The notes: generated from the sequence alone by a model not told the origin. Shown: positions 56,024 through 63,280, counted from the stretch's first letter. The stretch is DNA of 64,000 nucleotides from an uncultured Bacilli bacterium (GCA_947629025.1 CANRCC010000002.1:5041-69040); one strand, 5' to 3'. Numbers and translations: made by a program.

Positions 56024-56056
56024 AATTATCACCTCTAATCCAAGTATTCGAATAAT

Positions 56057-56098
56057 ATTATACCATTTATTTTAGCAATGTCAATACGTGAGTGCTAA
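56057..56098 (-). promoter_or_regulatory. CIRCE operator overlapping the sigma-A -35 of the hrcA promoter
   Basis: TTAGCACTC-N9-CATTGCTAA (56098-56072); TTGACA-N16-TATAAT. Confidence 0.9.
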
Positions 56099-56137: not shown

Positions 56138-59100
56138 TTAAAATGAACTGTTTTTATATTCATATTTATATTTTGACTCAAATGAGCTTTTATATACATG
56201 CAAAGATTTTTTAAATATACTAAGTATTTCACTTTTTGATAAAGAAGTTATTTTATGTATTTCATCAACTGAATAATATTTCTTATTTATCTTTCCAAAT
56301 AAAAGTTGGATTACAGAAAATTCAAGTTCATTAATATTATAATTTTTTAATAATTCATTTAATGTATTTATATTTACTAATTTACTTATTTTAAATATTT
56401 TTTCTTGAATATCATCTGATGATTCATATTTTTCTTCTTTCTTTTCTTTATCACTTTCAACGATTTCTTTTTCATTCTCAATGATTTCTTTATCACTTTT
56501 CATGATTTCTTTAACATTTTTCATGATTTCTTTTTCACATAATTCTTTTAATTCTTCATAACTATTTACATTAAAATAATTTAATATTCTAATTAATAAT
56601 TTAAGTGATATTCCATAGTTTAACCATTTATTTAGTGTTGATTTTGAAACTCCTAATTCTTCTGCAAATTTTGTTTGTGGTATACCTTTTATTTTTAAAT
56701 AATCACTTAAAAACGATATATCATATATTTTACATATATTAGATGAAATTTTTTCTATTTCTTTTTCGCATAATTCTTTTAATTCTTCATAACTATTTAT
56801 ATTAAAATAATTTAATATTTTAGGTAATTGTCTAAATGGTATTCCATGGTTTAACCATCTACCTAGTGTTGCTTCTGTAATTTCTAGTTCTTTTGCTAAT
56901 TCTTTTTGTGTTATACCTATTTTTTTTAAATAATATTTTAAAAATGATATATTATAGGTCTCATCTATACTAGGTGAATTTTCTTTTATCTCTTCTTCAC
57001 ATAATTCTTTTAATTCTTCATAACTATCTACATTAAAATAATTTAATATTTTAGGTAAGTCTTTAAATGATATTCCATGGTTTAACCATCTACCTAGTGT
57101 TGATTTTGTAATTTCTAGTTCTTCTGCTAATTTTTCTTGTGTTATACCTTTTATTTTTAAATAGTCAATTAAAAATGATATATCATATTTTTCATCTATA
57201 TTATATGGATTTTTTTCTATCTCTTTTTCACATAATTCTTTTAACTCTTCATAACTATTTACATTAAAATAATTTAATATTTTAGCTAAGTATTTAAATG
57301 GTATTCCATCTCTTATCCATTTGCCTAGTGTTGATGGTGAAAATCCTAGTTCTTTTGCTAATTTTGCTTGTGATGGACCTTTTATTTTTAAATAATCAAT
57401 TAAAAACGATATATCATATTTTTCATCTATATTGTATGAATTTTCTTCTATCTCCTTTTCGCATAATTCTTTTAATTCTTCATAACTATTTACATTAAAA
57501 TAATTTAATATCATAGGTAATTTTTTAAATGGTACTCCATCTTTTGACCATTTTCTTAGTGTTGATTCTGAAATTCCTAGTTCTTTTGCTAATTTTGCTT
57601 GTGATGGACCTTTTATTTTTAAATAATCAATTAAAAACGATATATCATATTTTTCACTTGTATTAGATAAATTTTCTTCTATCTCCTTTTCGCATAATTC
57701 TTTTAATTCTTCATAACTATTTACATTAAAATACTTTAATATTTTAGGTAAGTTGATAAATAAAATTCCATATTTTAACCATCTACCTAATGTTGATTCT
57801 GTAATTTCTAGTTGTTGTGCAAATTCTTTTTGTGATATACGTTTTATTTTTAAATAATATTTTAAAAATGATATATCATATTTTTCACTTATGTTATATG
57901 AAATTTTTCCTATCTCTTTTTCACATAATTCTTTTAACTCTTCATAACTATCTACATTAAAATAATTTAATATTCTAGGTAATTCATAAGATGATACTCC
58001 GCATTTTAACCATTTACTTAGTGTTGATTCTGAAATTCCTATTTCTTTTGCAAATTCTCTTTGTAATATATTTTTTGTTTTTAAATAATATTTTAAAAAT
58101 GATATATCATATATTTTACCTATATTAGATAAAACATTTTCTTTCTCTTCTTTGCAAAATTCTTTTAATTCTTCATAACTATTTACATTAAACCAATTTA
58201 ATATTCTATATAATTGTTTAAATGGTATTCCATTTTTTAACCAATTTCTTAATGTTTGAGCTGTAACTCCTATTTCTTTTGCAAATTCTATTTGTGGTAT
58301 ACGTTTTATTTTTAAATAATATTTTAAAAACGATATATCATATATTTCACTTATGTTAGATGAAATTTTTTCTATTTCTTTTTCACATAATTCTTTTAAC
58401 TCTTCATAACTATTTACATTAAAATAATTTAATATTTTAGGTAATTGTTTAAATGGTATTCCATCTTTTAACCAAGTTACTAATGTTTGTTTTGAAATTC
58501 CTATTTCTTTTACAAAGTCTTTTTGTAATATACCTTTTATTTTTAAATAGTCATTTAAAAACGATATATCATATTTTTTGTGTATATTAGATGTTTTTTG
58601 CTTTATTTCTTTTTCGCATAATTCTTTTAACTCTTCATAACTATTTACATTAAAATAATTTAGTATTTTAGTTAATTGTCTAAATAGTACCCCATCATTC
58701 AACCATGAATTTAATGTTGAAAATGAAATTCCTATTTCTCTTGCAAATTCTTTTTGAAATATACCTTTTATTTTTAAATAATCTCTCAAAAATGATATAT
58801 CATATTTTTCTCTTATGTTATATGAAATTTTTTTTAGATCTTTTTTGCATAATTCTTTTAATTCTTCATAACTATTTACATTAAAATACTTTAATATTCT
58901 AGGTAATTGGTTAAATGGTACTCCATTTTTTAACCAATTACTTAATGTTGGTTTTGCAATTCCTATTTTATCTGCAAATTCTGTTTGTGATATATCATTT
59001 ATTTTTAAATAATCACTTAAAAACGATATATCATATTTTTTATTTATATTAGATAAATTTTCTTCTATCTCTTTTTCACATAATTCTTTTAACTCTTCAT

Positions 59101-60304
59101 AACTATTTACATTAAAGTAATTTAGTATTTTAGGTAATTCATAAGATGGTACCCCACTTTTAAACCATTTGCCTAGTGTTGATAGTGCAATTTCTATTTT
59201 ATCTGCAAATTCTGTTTGTGATATACCTTTTATTTTTAAATAATCTTTTATAAATGATATATCATATCTTTTATTATTATAATTTTTCTTATTATAATTT
59301 TTATGAGAAGCACTTTTTATATATTTGCCTTTTAATTCTGCATAACTTTTACTTTTATATAAAAATAGTAATTTATCTAAATAATAACCTGGCATCTTTT
59401 TTTGATTTGATAGCCAAAGTTCTACTGATTGTAAATTTGCTTCTAAATCACGAGAAAATTTTATCATATCACTTTTTGTTTTTATTTCATTTGATAAAAA
59501 TGAAATATCATAACTTTTATTTTTTTCATTAGTTTTTTGTTGTTGTATTTTATTTTTTTCATTCATTTTTTGTTGTTGTATTTCATTTTTTTTATCAGCT
59601 AAAATCATCTTTTTTACATTATCTAAATTATCATATAACTCTTCTATTGTAGTACAATTACATTTTGATAATATTTTGTTTAAAGTATATTGAGGTACCT
59701 CTCTTCCTAAAACTAAATAATCATATAAAATAGATTGATTAATGTCAACAAATTTTGAAAAAGTATATAAACTAATATTATTTTTAATAATAAAACTATT
59801 TAAAAATTTAAGATTATCTAATTTTTTTTCTTTTATTTCCTTTTTATTATATATATTACTACTACGTACGTTTATTACGATTTGTTTATTTCCTGTAGTT
59901 TTTTTCTTTTCTGTAGTATCATTTCCATATAATTCTTTATATGCTGATCTTATATTTGCAATTAAAGTATCTCTACTATTATATTTATTAATTACTTTTG
60001 TAAAAACATTTTCATAACATTCATCTATATCAGATGCTTTTATTTTATATCTATATGCCATTTGATTAGAAATATATGATAATTTATCCATTAGTATTTT
60101 TTTAAAATTTTCATCTTTTTTTGCTAAAGAAACAGTATAATGATCTATATAAAATCTTGCGCGTTCTATTAAAGGAAGAGATTTTCTTCTGCATTTATTT
60201 TCTGCATAATCTATCGCATCTTCATACACACTATCATCTAATTGTAAATATTTATATTCTCTTTTTAAATTATCTAATAAACGTTCATACGTGAATTTAT
60301 CCAT
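56138..60304 (-). CDS. large multi-XRE-HTH repeat protein with sigma70 region-2-like N-terminus and region-4-like C-terminus
   Basis: 12 x 77-aa repeats YDISFL..YLK.KGI.Q.E.A.E.GI...TL..W...G...L..IL.YFNVNSYEELKELC, plus 2 degenerate N-terminal HTHs; C-terminal E..VIQLLFG....YSVDEI.....SK.EI..IFKKSL. Confidence 0.85.
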   Translation of the reverse strand: MDKFTYERLLDNLKREYKYLQLDDSVYEDAIDYAENKCRRKSLPLIERARFYIDHYTVSLAKKDENFKKILMDKLSYISNQMAYRYKIKASDIDECYENVFTKVINKYNSRDTLIANIRSAYKELYGNDTTEKKKTTGNKQIVINVRSSNIYNKKEIKEKKLDNLKFLNSFIIKNNISLYTFSKFVDINQSILYDYLVLGREVPQYTLNKILSKCNCTTIEELYDNLDNVKKMILADKKNEIQQQKMNEKNKIQQQKTNEKNKSYDISFLSNEIKTKSDMIKFSRDLEANLQSVELWLSNQKKMPGYYLDKLLFLYKSKSYAELKGKYIKSASHKNYNKKNYNNKRYDISFIKDYLKIKGISQTEFADKIEIALSTLGKWFKSGVPSYELPKILNYFNVNSYEELKELCEKEIEENLSNINKKYDISFLSDYLKINDISQTEFADKIGIAKPTLSNWLKNGVPFNQLPRILKYFNVNSYEELKELCKKDLKKISYNIREKYDISFLRDYLKIKGIFQKEFAREIGISFSTLNSWLNDGVLFRQLTKILNYFNVNSYEELKELCEKEIKQKTSNIHKKYDISFLNDYLKIKGILQKDFVKEIGISKQTLVTWLKDGIPFKQLPKILNYFNVNSYEELKELCEKEIEKISSNISEIYDISFLKYYLKIKRIPQIEFAKEIGVTAQTLRNWLKNGIPFKQLYRILNWFNVNSYEELKEFCKEEKENVLSNIGKIYDISFLKYYLKTKNILQREFAKEIGISESTLSKWLKCGVSSYELPRILNYFNVDSYEELKELCEKEIGKISYNISEKYDISFLKYYLKIKRISQKEFAQQLEITESTLGRWLKYGILFINLPKILKYFNVNSYEELKELCEKEIEENLSNTSEKYDISFLIDYLKIKGPSQAKLAKELGISESTLRKWSKDGVPFKKLPMILNYFNVNSYEELKELCEKEIEENSYNIDEKYDISFLIDYLKIKGPSQAKLAKELGFSPSTLGKWIRDGIPFKYLAKILNYFNVNSYEELKELCEKEIEKNPYNIDEKYDISFLIDYLKIKGITQEKLAEELEITKSTLGRWLNHGISFKDLPKILNYFNVDSYEELKELCEEEIKENSPSIDETYNISFLKYYLKKIGITQKELAKELEITEATLGRWLNHGIPFRQLPKILNYFNINSYEELKELCEKEIEKISSNICKIYDISFLSDYLKIKGIPQTKFAEELGVSKSTLNKWLNYGISLKLLIRILNYFNVNSYEELKELCEKEIMKNVKEIMKSDKEIIENEKEIVESDKEKKEEKYESSDDIQEKIFKISKLVNINTLNELLKNYNINELEFSVIQLLFGKINKKYYSVDEIHKITSLSKSEILSIFKKSLHVYKSSFESKYKYEYKNSSF
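56495..59266 (-). repeat. 12 tandem in-frame 231-bp repeats
   Basis: Unit starts at 59266, 59035 ... 56725 (exact 231-bp period verified at the first, second and last units). Confidence 0.95.
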
Positions 60305-60327: not shown

Positions 60328-61392
60328 TTATTTAAATTGTAATTTTTTTGCTTCTTCAAAATTTTTAAATAAGTATTCTTTACAAATATATAGATACTTT
60401 TTATAAATTTTTATAACTTCATTTTTATTCTTTTTAAATCTTTTACATACTACTCTAATAGAGTTTTTATCAAGATTATGATTATATAATAGTATTATTA
60501 TTTGTCTTTCTTCAATGCTAGCATTTTCATTTTCAAAAATAAAATTTAAGATATCTTCATTAATATAATCTGTTATATTTATCTTTTTTTCTTCTTGATT
60601 TTTAAAGTTTTCATATGCGTTATATAATGAGCTTTCTAGTTTTAATTGCTGTAACATTTCATTTTTATCTATATTGTTTTTAAATGCATCAAATAATTCT
60701 TCCTTATTTGTAACATTAAATAAATCAAATATATTTTCTATTTCATCTTCTATAAAATCATCTTCATTATTTAAACAACTGCATAACACTTCTATATCCA
60801 TATTTATATATTTTGAAAAAACATAATAGTTTATATTAAAGTCATCTAAAAATTTCTTTAAGTTTACAGCAATATCAAAATATTCATATGGTTCTTCATT
60901 ATTTTGATCATCTTCTATAACTTCTTTAATTTCATTAGATTCTTTTTTAGGTTCATATAAATTATATTTATTTTTAATATCAATAAGCATATACTTTAAT
61001 ATATTTTCTCTTAATGTTTTATTAGAATCATAATCATTTAAGCATTTTTCAAATGCATCTTCATATATCTTATTTACTTCGTCATTTAAAAAAGGAAATT
61101 TATGCGTAACTAAAACTATTATATTTTTATGTTTCTCAAGTAATAATATTTGAAAATCAATATCATCTATGCATTTTTTTATTAACATACTTTCTATATA
61201 TTTTCTTGAACAAAATATAATATCAATATATGAATCTAATTGTTTACTTTTTGCAAAAGAAAGCGCATCATCAATTAGCTTATCATCTATTTGATAAACT
61301 AAATCTTTTGATAAAATATTGTTATTATAATCCTTAATAATATTATAATATGTATAATTTTTTTTAAGATTTTCACGTATTATTTTATACAT
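60328..61392 (-). CDS. paralog of the repeat protein: sigma-r2-like + single XRE-HTH + sigma-r4-like
   Basis: LLEKHKNII..V..KF......IYEDAF.KCLNDYDS.KTL..NI; LKKFLDDFNINYYVFSKYINMD.EVL...LN; SIEERQIIILLY...KN.NEVIKIYKKYL. Confidence 0.7.
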   Translation of the reverse strand: MYKIIRENLKKNYTYYNIIKDYNNNILSKDLVYQIDDKLIDDALSFAKSKQLDSYIDIIFCSRKYIESMLIKKCIDDIDFQILLLEKHKNIIVLVTHKFPFLNDEVNKIYEDAFEKCLNDYDSNKTLRENILKYMLIDIKNKYNLYEPKKESNEIKEVIEDDQNNEEPYEYFDIAVNLKKFLDDFNINYYVFSKYINMDIEVLCSCLNNEDDFIEDEIENIFDLFNVTNKEELFDAFKNNIDKNEMLQQLKLESSLYNAYENFKNQEEKKINITDYINEDILNFIFENENASIEERQIIILLYNHNLDKNSIRVVCKRFKKNKNEVIKIYKKYLYICKEYLFKNFEEAKKLQFK

Positions 61393-61419: not shown

Positions 61420-61449
61420 AATGTACCATTTTTTGTTTTTTTTTGTCAA
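61420..61449 (-). promoter_or_regulatory. sigma-A promoter of the two-gene sigma-like operon
   Basis: TTGACA-N18 (A-tract)-TACATT with extended TG. Confidence 0.55.
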
Positions 61450-61472: not shown

Positions 61473-61766
61473 CTAATCTATTTTAATATATGGTTCTAAA
61501 AAATCATATCCAAAGAAGTATATCAAAACTGCTGATATAACTAAGAATATTATTAATCCAATTTGAATTCTTTCAATTAGTTTATCATTTGATTTTTTCT
61601 CTTTTTTTAAAGTATTATCGTTAATAGCAGAACTTATATCAATAATATTTTCATTAGGAGAATCACTTACATCTATCATTTCAAAATCTTGTTCAAAATC
61701 TTCTTCATTATCATCATTATTTTTAAATATATTTGATAATTCTATTATATTACTTTCTTCATTCAT
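61473..61766 (-). CDS. hypothetical acidic protein with C-terminal TM helix
   Basis: GAGGGG RBS; tail-anchored hydrophobic segment. Confidence 0.7.
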   Translation of the reverse strand: MNEESNIIELSNIFKNNDDNEEDFEQDFEMIDVSDSPNENIIDISSAINDNTLKKEKKSNDKLIERIQIGLIIFLVISAVLIYFFGYDFLEPYIKID

Positions 61767-62923: not shown

Positions 62924-63280
62924 TTAAAGTTTTCTAGGTGCACAACCATTAAACTTTGAATCATCATTTTTTATAATTTCATTTTTCTTATAGGAATTTA
63001 TTCCACCTTTTTGTTTTGCTTTACTTAAATTTTCTTTTCTTTTTCTTCTAATAAACTCTATATTTTCTTTTTGTTTATCAGTTAATTCTAAACTATTATT
63101 TACCTGCATATATAATCTTTTAATATTTTCTGTTAAATCTCTTTGAACAGTTGAACTTGAACTTTTTATTCCTAAAAATGCAAGCGTTCTAGCAATTTTT
63201 TCATCTGATATTTCACCATTATTATCTAAAAAGATTTTTATTGTATTATTTATTCTTATTAACATTTCACTATTTAACAC
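62924..63280 (-). CDS. SpoIIID-like helix-turn-helix protein
   Basis: IA...GI.SSSSTVQRDLTE and later KGG resemble SpoIIID IAKEFGVSKSTVHKDLTE...RGG. Confidence 0.55.
   Translation of the reverse strand: MLNSEMLIRINNTIKIFLDNNGEISDEKIARTLAFLGIKSSSSTVQRDLTENIKRLYMQVNNSLELTDKQKENIEFIRRKRKENLSKAKQKGGINSYKKNEIIKNDDSKFNGCAPRKL

Follow-up and report, generated by a model that had tools for sequence, protein, structure and literature searches.

A diversifying array of XRE-type helix-turn-helix modules in a putative DNA-binding regulator of an uncultured gut Bacilli bacterium

Introduction

Bacterial helix-turn-helix (HTH) regulators are usually pictured as having a single domain and as owing their specificity to dimerisation. 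What might a bacterium do with a dozen HTH domains strung at regular spacing along a single chain? The question is raised by a gene in a stretch of 64,000 nucleotides (the window) from an uncultured Bacilli bacterium (GCA_947629025.1, CANRCC010000002.1:5041-69040). The gene is one intact open reading frame (ORF) on the minus strand with an ATG start, and its product of 1388 amino acids (aa), P0001, was singled out from the sequence alone as a sigma-like protein with XRE-type repeats and a candidate TALE-like DNA reader (the original prediction). On balance we favour reading P0001 as a polydentate regulator that binds DNA in a sequence-specific way, arose from a sigma-like scaffold and has diversifying reading modules; its role would most simply be that of a repressor.

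Architecture of the array protein

The gene and the parts of its product are as follows (HMM, hidden Markov model; TRF, Tandem Repeats Finder).

56138..60304, minus strand: whole gene for the array protein P0001, stop codon included (ORF list and translation)
59900..60304, minus strand: N-terminal domain, aa 1-135, family-specific (N-domain HMM, E 5e-29)
59600..59812, minus strand: degenerate HTH-like module A, aa 165-235, aligning with the single module of the paralogue P0002
59267..59512, minus strand: degenerate module B, aa 265-346, 82 aa, with a YDISF start (anchor scan; module HMM match to aa 265-325)
56495..59266, minus strand: twelve XRE/HTH_3 repeats with an exact 77-aa period, aa 347-1270 (TRF, anchor scan, Pfam HTH_3)
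56408..56494, minus strand: acidic K/E-rich linker, aa 1271-1299 (translation), inside a short 21/42-bp repeat array (TRF 56443-56538)
56141..56407, minus strand: C-terminal domain, aa 1300-1388 (C-domain HMM match to aa 1300-1384; hhalign to sigma alignments)

The twelve exact 77-aa repeats claimed in the original prediction were recovered by two methods in agreement. The anchor Y[DN]ISF marks 13 starts in P0001, the last 12 exactly 77 aa apart, and TRF reports 11.9 copies of a 231-bp period at 56529-59272 with 83% matches and 0% indels. A broadened module HMM brings the total to 14 modules: the 12 regular copies of the 231-bp unit, which one of two tandem paralogues at this locus has amplified, and before them the two degenerate ones, of which module A has lost the initial Gln of helix 2. 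The array is the top-scoring tandem repeat of the 1.12-Mb, 91%-complete genome (score 3367, next 1165; whole-genome TRF), and because it so far outscores every other, a chance pattern can be rejected.

The assignment of the repeats to the XRE-HTH class was likewise upheld, with P0001 matching Pfam HTH_3 (PF01381) in 11 separate stretches (E 7.1e-79, 260.2 bits, gathering cut-off 23). A single repeat also matches phage XRE-type regulators (PHROGs), and among solved structures the repeat profile is closest to XRE-type and POU-specific-like DNA binders, 2kpj (E 1.4e-5) and HNF-1alpha (E 0.007). Judged by these matches, each repeat is a full XRE/Cro-C1 HTH_3 domain. The protein is basic (isoelectric point, pI, 8.7; net charge +22), and its gene (20% G+C) lies in surroundings whose G+C content ranges from 19 to 27% across the window.

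Uneven change along the repeat

Compared pairwise, the repeats are on average 82% identical in DNA and 65% in protein, and they have diverged to a synonymous divergence (dS) of ~0.2 with zero indels. Helix 1 and helices 4-5 (the scaffold) are nearly invariant, and the invariant columns include Y1, I3-F5, Y9-K11, Q17, T30, L31, W34, G38 and nearly all of 47-63. Variation is found in columns 14-46 (the HTH face), which take in helix 2, the recognition helix and the loop that follows, and also in the 12-aa linker. Within the face, all 12 regular repeats retain the Q17 that opens helix 2, and no two of them have the same residue set at positions 27, 28, 29, 32 and 33. Each of the 12 recognition-helix strings given in the original prediction was found exactly as listed, and the Thr, Leu and Trp it described as fixed are the invariant T30, L31 and W34.

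Nei-Gojobori ratios of nonsynonymous to synonymous divergence (dN/dS) over all pairs are 0.15 for helices 4-5, 0.41 for helix 1, 0.7 for the linker, 2.2 for the loop after helix 3 and 3.6 for the exposed recognition-helix positions 27, 28, 29, 32 and 33; helix 2 has a very high dN/dS, yet its dS is oddly low (0.03-0.04). We recounted the changes on six disjoint nearest repeat pairs, so that shared history was not counted repeatedly. The HTH face then has 101 nonsynonymous and 13 synonymous changes, a per-site ratio (pN/pS) of 2.24 (Fisher p=0.002 against site numbers), the scaffold has a pN/pS of 0.28 (p=0.0002), and the contrast between the two is significant (p=0.0004). The scaffold is under purifying selection and the HTH face has an excess of amino-acid replacements, so that change along the repeat is not uniform. 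The variation first noticed at recognition-helix positions 1, 2, 5 and 6 is part of this enrichment, although the pattern is broader than had been thought and takes in helix 2, the loop and the linker. A second, very young array in a genome of the same genus (G003), with pairs 95-100% identical, has the same trend on tiny numbers (face 5 nonsynonymous to 0 synonymous, scaffold 1:3; p=0.048).

Every one of the 12 repeats has an HTH face of net charge 0 to +4, and helices 4-5 and the linker are mostly acidic. Gln17 and positions 28, 29 and 33 would correspond to DNA-contacting residues by analogy with the 434 repressor and POU-DNA structures. Conservation of Gln17 and a positive HTH face are in keeping with a contact with DNA.

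Sigma-like features of the two ends

The original prediction likened the C-terminus of P0001 to sigma-70 region 4, and profile comparisons bear this out: the C-domain is very probably a remote homologue of the region 4 HTH. A 41-sequence family alignment matched a sigma alignment at region 4 with an hhalign probability of 96.3% (E 1.6e-9; reversed control 0.2%), and a six-sequence profile searched against PDB returned Thermotoga RpoD region 4 as its best match (1tty, E 0.027), 6 of its 15 matches being RpoD region 4. In SigK/E-like proteins the C-domain HMM picks out region 4 as verified by Pfam (E 1e-4 to 1e-8), and its best non-family matches in the genome of P0001 itself (G000) are SigA (7e-5) and SigE (1e-4). 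Direct model searches gave no such match: the last 120 aa have no Pfam sigma match at E<=10, and a six-frame genome search with Sigma70_r4 (PF04545) found 11 places, none at the P0001 locus. P0001 matches no sigma model of NCBIfam either.

The closest non-family relatives of the C-domain (E 1e-9 to 1e-12) are extra C-terminal domains of sigma factors. In the representative search, P0064, P0077, P0091, P0102, P0104 and others are SigK/SigE-like sigma factors of 360-530 aa in which the canonical region 4 is followed by one or two further domains resembling it. The two extra copies in P0064 are nearly identical to each other by eye, and the extra C-terminal domain of P0147 matches Pfam Sigma70_r4 above cut-off (30.8 bits). 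Unlike P0001, these proteins have a full canonical sigma-2 and sigma-4 of their own and no XRE modules. We know of no description of sigma factors with such extra region-4-like domains.

The companion claim, a likeness of the N-terminus to sigma-70 region 2, was weakly supported. Whether built from 3, 7 or 39 sequences, the N-domain alignment is placed on sigma region 2.1-2.2, with hhalign probabilities of 70%, 14% and 11% (E 3.9e-5, 0.002 and 0.0028), and the score of 25.9 lies above all 60 block-shuffles (mean 12.0, standard deviation 1.8, maximum 16.9). The N-domain motif 'IN.IYE.AIE....Y(D/N)' falls on the SigH segment 'YNDLYQEAL.GF.DAI..F', and Y97 and Y108 are nearly invariant in the family. 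Three of the five matches outside G000 in an N-domain genome search are SigH orthologues, adjoining rlmB and nusG; an Era-like GTPase scored equally, so false positives occur among matches of this strength (rlmB, nusG and the GTPase, the last with its G1 motif, were named from reading the sequences and not by family search). What did not hold is a likeness detectable by standard models. No Pfam match at E<=10, Sigma70_r2 included, was obtained with aa 1-160; a six-frame genome search with Sigma70_r2 (PF04542) found 6 sigma genes and nothing at the P0001 locus; the N-domain HMM retrieved no sigma factor from the genome of P0001 (best non-family match E 0.16) and the N-domain had no match in PDB; and no aromatic region 2.3/2.4-like motif is evident in the consensus. 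The chances that the N-domain is of sigma-2 origin appear roughly even. A complex prediction of the N-domain alignment with a beta-prime clamp-helix fragment from the same genome, run without controls, scored 0.00, which speaks neither for nor against binding.

These results bear on whether P0001 is a working alternative sigma factor or a polymerase-tethered factor, with the N-domain on the beta-prime clamp helices, the C-domain on the beta flap or a -35-like element and the array reading upstream DNA, thereby recruiting or blocking polymerase. We consider this unlikely. As in two-domain sigma-70 factors (SigH, ECF-like), a region 4 homologue follows an N-domain that aligns, weakly but in three alignments and above all shuffles, to regions 2.1-2.2; the order is correct, SigH orthologues figure in the genome search, and the module-free members of the family (247-296 aa) match a two-domain sigma factor in size and layout. 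Against this, richer alignments lower the N-domain probability to 11-14%, the GTPase false positive came at a similar E-value, and the Sigma70_r2 and Sigma70_r4 models, with 6 and 11 places in the genome, pass over this locus and both termini. Nor are sigma models among the 25 listed of the 64 families matched by 36 family members scanned singly. P0001 and its relatives also differ from sigma-70 factors in having up to 1,100 residues of modules between the ends, and some members (one gene in G008 and both in G001) are without a C-domain. SigA, H, F, E, G and K are already encoded in the genome, and we know of no precedent for a folded insert of 1,100 residues replacing the sigma 3.2 linker. 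As a whole, P0001 cannot be shown to belong to the sigma-70 family: region 2 was not recovered with the Pfam model, and region 4 is reached by remote-homology methods only. The array may have taken the place of a sigma linker, as the original prediction proposed.

A family of variable module number at a shared locus

Two further features adjoin the array gene.

60328..61392, minus strand: tandem paralogue P0002, 354 aa, with N-domain, one degenerate module and C-domain (BLASTP, domain HMMs)
61420..61449, minus strand: promoter-like site upstream of P0002, TTGACA, 18-nt spacer, TACATT, with TG extension (consensus scan)

P0001 and P0002 match each other over the N part (BLASTP E 2e-10) and the C part (E 0.006), and P0002 matches no Pfam, NCBIfam, PHROG or PADLOC family. 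The P0002 stop lies 23 bp upstream of the P0001 start, and the purine-rich stretch between them may be a ribosome-binding site. This short gap and the promoter-like site before P0002 suggest that the two genes are co-transcribed, and the site is the likely start of a P0002-P0001 transcript, with the qualification that promoter-like sites in the region are no more numerous than in shuffles.

A profile search of 1.84 billion cluster representatives found 307 family representatives at E<=1e-3, 67 at E<=1e-10 and 29 at E<=1e-30. The family occurs in uncultured gut Bacilli with small, AT-rich genomes. Architecture was parsed for the best 150 and for relatives from genomes. The ground plan is a ~130-aa N-domain, 0-4 XRE modules and a C-terminal HTH domain; among the 28 parsed proteins with both end domains, the number of modules is 0 (n=6), 1 (2), 2 (10), 3 (8), 4 (1) or 14 (P0001). 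The outliers in module number are P0001 and P0003, a protein of 1639 aa and 28% identity that has at least 15 diverged modules and a C-domain like that of P0001. Since relatives have 0, 1, 2, 3, 4, 5, 14 or at least 15 modules, the idea of an expandable array with homologues of differing repeat number is supported by the sequences. The family is fast-evolving and has no Pfam or NCBIfam model, for which reason its members can be annotated only as generic HTH proteins.

Within the genus, the N-domain occurs in 6 of 12 genomes, 3' of hemW and a gene for a small membrane protein, and with hrcA 3' where the contig extends that far. The order hemW-membrane protein-[family genes]-hrcA is found in G001, G002, G003 and G004; in G008 the family gene follows hemW and the membrane protein gene and has another downstream neighbour. 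Content at this position varies from genome to genome: one gene with N-domain, 2 modules and C-domain in G002; two tandem genes in G004 (N-domain, 3 modules and C-domain; N- and C-domain), with a third elsewhere (N-domain, 4 modules and C-domain); two genes in G001, each with N-domain and 5 modules; three in G003, the last with at least 5 near-identical modules and running to the contig end; and one in G008 with N-domain and 2 modules. A relative whose HrcA is 80% identical has lepA-hemW-membrane protein-hrcA and no family gene, from which it follows that the family is an accessory, fast-changing insert and the small membrane protein a resident gene.

In the order as a whole the N-domain is rare: a search covering 401 genomes and 145 genera returned it from 6 genomes and 3 genera. 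An hrcA-anchored scan took in 80 named loci from metagenome-assembled genomes (MAGs) of uncultured gut Bacilli, 'Tenericutes'/'Mollicutes', Candidatus Fimihabitans and CAG:321; none of these loci, 60 of which extend 3 kb or more upstream, has an ORF with the N-domain, and three ORFs of 261-366 aa with C-domain-only matches are probably sigma factors. No relative was found in phage records (queries P0001 and the module-free G004-303) or in plasmid records (query P0001), and no close relative of the array in genome contigs (query P0001) or in viral and metagenome contigs (query repeat alignment A7).

Support for the assembled array

Could the array be a non-functional runaway expansion of repeats or a mis-assembled region of the MAG? 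The gene is known from a single MAG, which is also the only source of the array copy number, and the exact protein is absent from a collection of 5.8 billion proteins. A search of sequencing runs gave seven DNA entries from three studies (rabbit gut, gut metagenomes) and no RNA entry, and Logan contigs from four of the runs were compared; they are short and break inside the array, none of them spanning it, and a 113-bp piece of the array is 100% identical in another contig. Yet run X1 contains fragments of every one of the 30 bins into which the stretch was divided, and the longest exact repeat inside the array is 82 bp, with only 6 distinct recurring 77-mers, so short reads could resolve the array and an assembly artefact is unlikely. 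Runaway expansion sits poorly with a 4.2-kb ORF that stays open at 20% G+C, with zero indels in 12 x 231 bp despite ~18% nucleotide divergence and with purifying selection on the scaffold, and other genomes have family members with at least 5 modules. We regard both forms of artefact as highly improbable.

Three observations on the contigs stand apart. A contig of run X3, from another rabbit-gut sample, joins 56533 to 58374, skipping 1840 bases (~8 repeat units) with 13 other letters between and 30 letters on the shorter side; it may stem from a strain with a shorter array or from a repeat-induced mis-join, and is too weak for calling a copy-number variant. The 113-bp piece, from the junction of repeats 9 and 10 (57118-57230), lies in frame in an unrelated 261-aa ORF (G000:C7:53315-53427), and a Logan contig of run X1 switches to unrelated sequence exactly at 57118; the copy is a genuinely transplanted piece of a module or else the product of a chimeric join. 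Lastly, of 40 among the 52 strain differences, 39 fall in the gene and 26 of those in the array; the HTH face accounts for 19, namely 15 nonsynonymous and 4 synonymous (binomial p=0.002), a pattern that we do not count as evidence because short contigs from one repeat placed on another would mimic it.

A regulator with many reading heads

In the reading that we favour, each module would be an independent DNA-binding head with its own half-site preference, and the flexible, variable 12-aa linkers would join the heads as beads on a string and not as a rigid solenoid. Because each head would be competent by itself, the protein would bind with high avidity, either to one long composite site or to a range of different operators. 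The sigma-4-like C-domain may add another DNA contact or a contact with the RNA polymerase flap, and the N-domain, which is common to the adjacent paralogue, may mediate partner binding, be it dimerisation or binding of RNA polymerase. Candidate targets are operators of mobile elements and lineage-specific regulons, and diversification of the modules would mean that the recognised sequences change quickly.

Several points count against this reading. Four of the five other arrays tested have no significant contrast between face and scaffold, most of those pairs being saturated. Our dN/dS values are pairwise counts among paralogous repeats, in which gene conversion is possible and in which the low dS of helix 2 stands out. 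The linker is also variable, so not all of the variation is functional tuning. The whole-genome TRF search gave no candidate array of binding sites, most of its repeats, which were not checked singly, looking like coding sequence. As noted above, the array copy number comes from one MAG. HTH_3 domains, finally, also act as protein-binding modules, for example in antitoxins.

The last point opens the possibility that P0001 is a protein-binding decoy or sensor directed at phages or mobile elements, its diversified XRE domains mimicking repressors or antitoxins in order to soak up anti-repressors or sense invader proteins, with DNA not the main ligand. Positive selection on one surface, presence/absence and copy-number variation among close species and a hot spot with tandem paralogues are all in keeping with such a role, as are the best NCBIfam, PHROG and PADLOC matches of the modules, which are HTH regulators of phages or defence systems: the AimR N-terminal HTH, phage transcriptional regulators and the mad1 and PDC models. 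These matches, however, amount to generic HTH similarity with scores summed over 12 copies. The locus neighbours are lepA, hemW, hrcA, grpE and dnaK, with no defence, toxin or phage genes flanking; the phage records, plasmid records and viral contigs contributed no relative; and the conserved Gln17 and positive HTH face suit a contact with DNA. We hold a decoy to be quite unlikely.

Nor does a nucleoid-associated or chromosome-organising protein, whose weakly specific heads would bridge or coat AT-rich DNA and whose module number would tune avidity and not specificity, account well for the pattern of change. Many DNA-binding heads on flexible linkers in a basic protein, the abundance of AT-rich sites at the G+C content of the window and the lack of a discrete target array in the genome-wide TRF search would suit it. 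Diversifying change at presumed base-reading positions (placed by analogy with the 434 repressor and POU domains and by the HNF-1 alignment) is unexpected for a non-specific binder. Half of the genus lacks the gene, as do 395 of the 401 order genomes searched, so it is not a core nucleoid protein. Such a role appears distinctly improbable.

A more far-reaching version of the regulator that we favour would make P0001 the bacterial counterpart of the poly-zinc-finger and TALE readers: an expandable XRE array under positive selection that tracks phage and mobile-element operators, with ends descended from sigma-2 and sigma-4 sitting on RNA polymerase and steering or blocking it. We see this as possible but doubtful.

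Comparison with known systems

The modules share with XRE/Cro-C1 regulators of the HTH_3 type a full domain per repeat, Gln at the start of helix 2, an 'S/T-L..W/..G' recognition-helix pattern and a fourth and fifth helix. Known members differ in having one or two HTH_3 domains and acting as dimers on palindromes; P0001 has 14 modules in one chain, along with its N-domain and sigma-4-like C-domain. AimR (NF038310) is the top NCBIfam match, and its N-terminal HTH resembles the modules. Membership was rejected, as the 12 matching stretches all cover profile positions 2-69 of 365 and the high score is their sum; P0001 is without the TPR-like peptide-binding domain.

TALE repeats and KRAB zinc-finger arrays are tandem DNA-reading modules with a conserved scaffold, hypervariable contacts and a module number that varies among lineages. 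A TALE repeat of 33-35 aa reads one base through a two-residue RVD within a rigid superhelix. The unit of P0001 is a complete 77-aa HTH_3 domain with a variable linker, is not homologous to the TALE repeat and does not form a one-base repeat, so 'TALE-like', as the original prediction had it, survives as an analogy only. In its logic P0001 is closer to poly-zinc-finger or POU/HNF-1 proteins, with their beads on a string, than to TALEs.

Regulators with two HTH_XRE domains have been described from phage WO (bioRxiv 10.1101/2021.11.04.467296). Neither long tandem arrays of XRE domains nor a fusion of sigma and XRE parts turned up in the titles and abstract openings from full-text literature searches or in passages of PMC8195603 and bioRxiv 10.1101/2021.11.04.467296.

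Other features of the window and genome

The resident small membrane protein (61473-61766, minus strand) is 97 aa long, acidic in its N-terminal part and equipped with a single C-terminal membrane helix; FFGYDF/L.EPYIKID is a conserved motif at its end. The protein's gene adjoins hemW in relatives with and without the array family and has no Pfam, NCBIfam, PHROG or PADLOC match. We considered it as an anti-sigma-like partner and rejected it, since a relative has it beside hemW without a family gene. Between lepA and hemW lies an ORF of 118 aa (62924-63280, minus strand) with a stretch 'SSSTVQRDLTE', which found no significant match in Pfam (best E 0.031) or NCBIfam (best E 0.016). It recalls a DeoR/SpoIIID-type HTH, a SpoIIID-like nature being our guess without backing from a family match.

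On the other side of the array gene, hrcA has a perfect extended sigma-A-type promoter (56055-56098, minus strand; TTGACA, 16-nt spacer, TG-TATAAT, 12/12 consensus positions). An inverted repeat, TTAGCACTC-N9-CATTGCTAA, overlaps this promoter and is CIRCE-like.

Elsewhere in G000, contigs C4, C6, C16 and C19 (L017-L022) hold SigA and best matches to SigH, SigF-type, SigE, SigG and SigK. Of the sporulation sigma factors only SigK passes its NCBIfam cut-off (a subfamily model), SigE and SigG falling narrowly below and SigH and SigF well below. Matches to all five are unexpected in such a reduced gut lineage. The contig region G000:C31:5222-5821 has about three copies of a 125-bp unit with a G+C-rich palindrome (…CCATTTTGGCGGCGCCGCCAAAATGG…) in a genome that is otherwise very AT-rich.

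Implications

If the regulator reading is true, a chain of 14 XRE heads would be a bacterial use of the modular-array solution seen in eukaryotic zinc fingers and in TALEs, one that combines copy-number change between species with positive selection on a predicted DNA-facing surface. Twelve related modules with different contact residues would then form a series from which an XRE recognition code might be read and, perhaps, DNA binders designed. The sigma-4-like domain at one end, and possibly a sigma-2-like one at the other, would point to a way in which parts of sigma factors come to be reused in regulators of other kinds.

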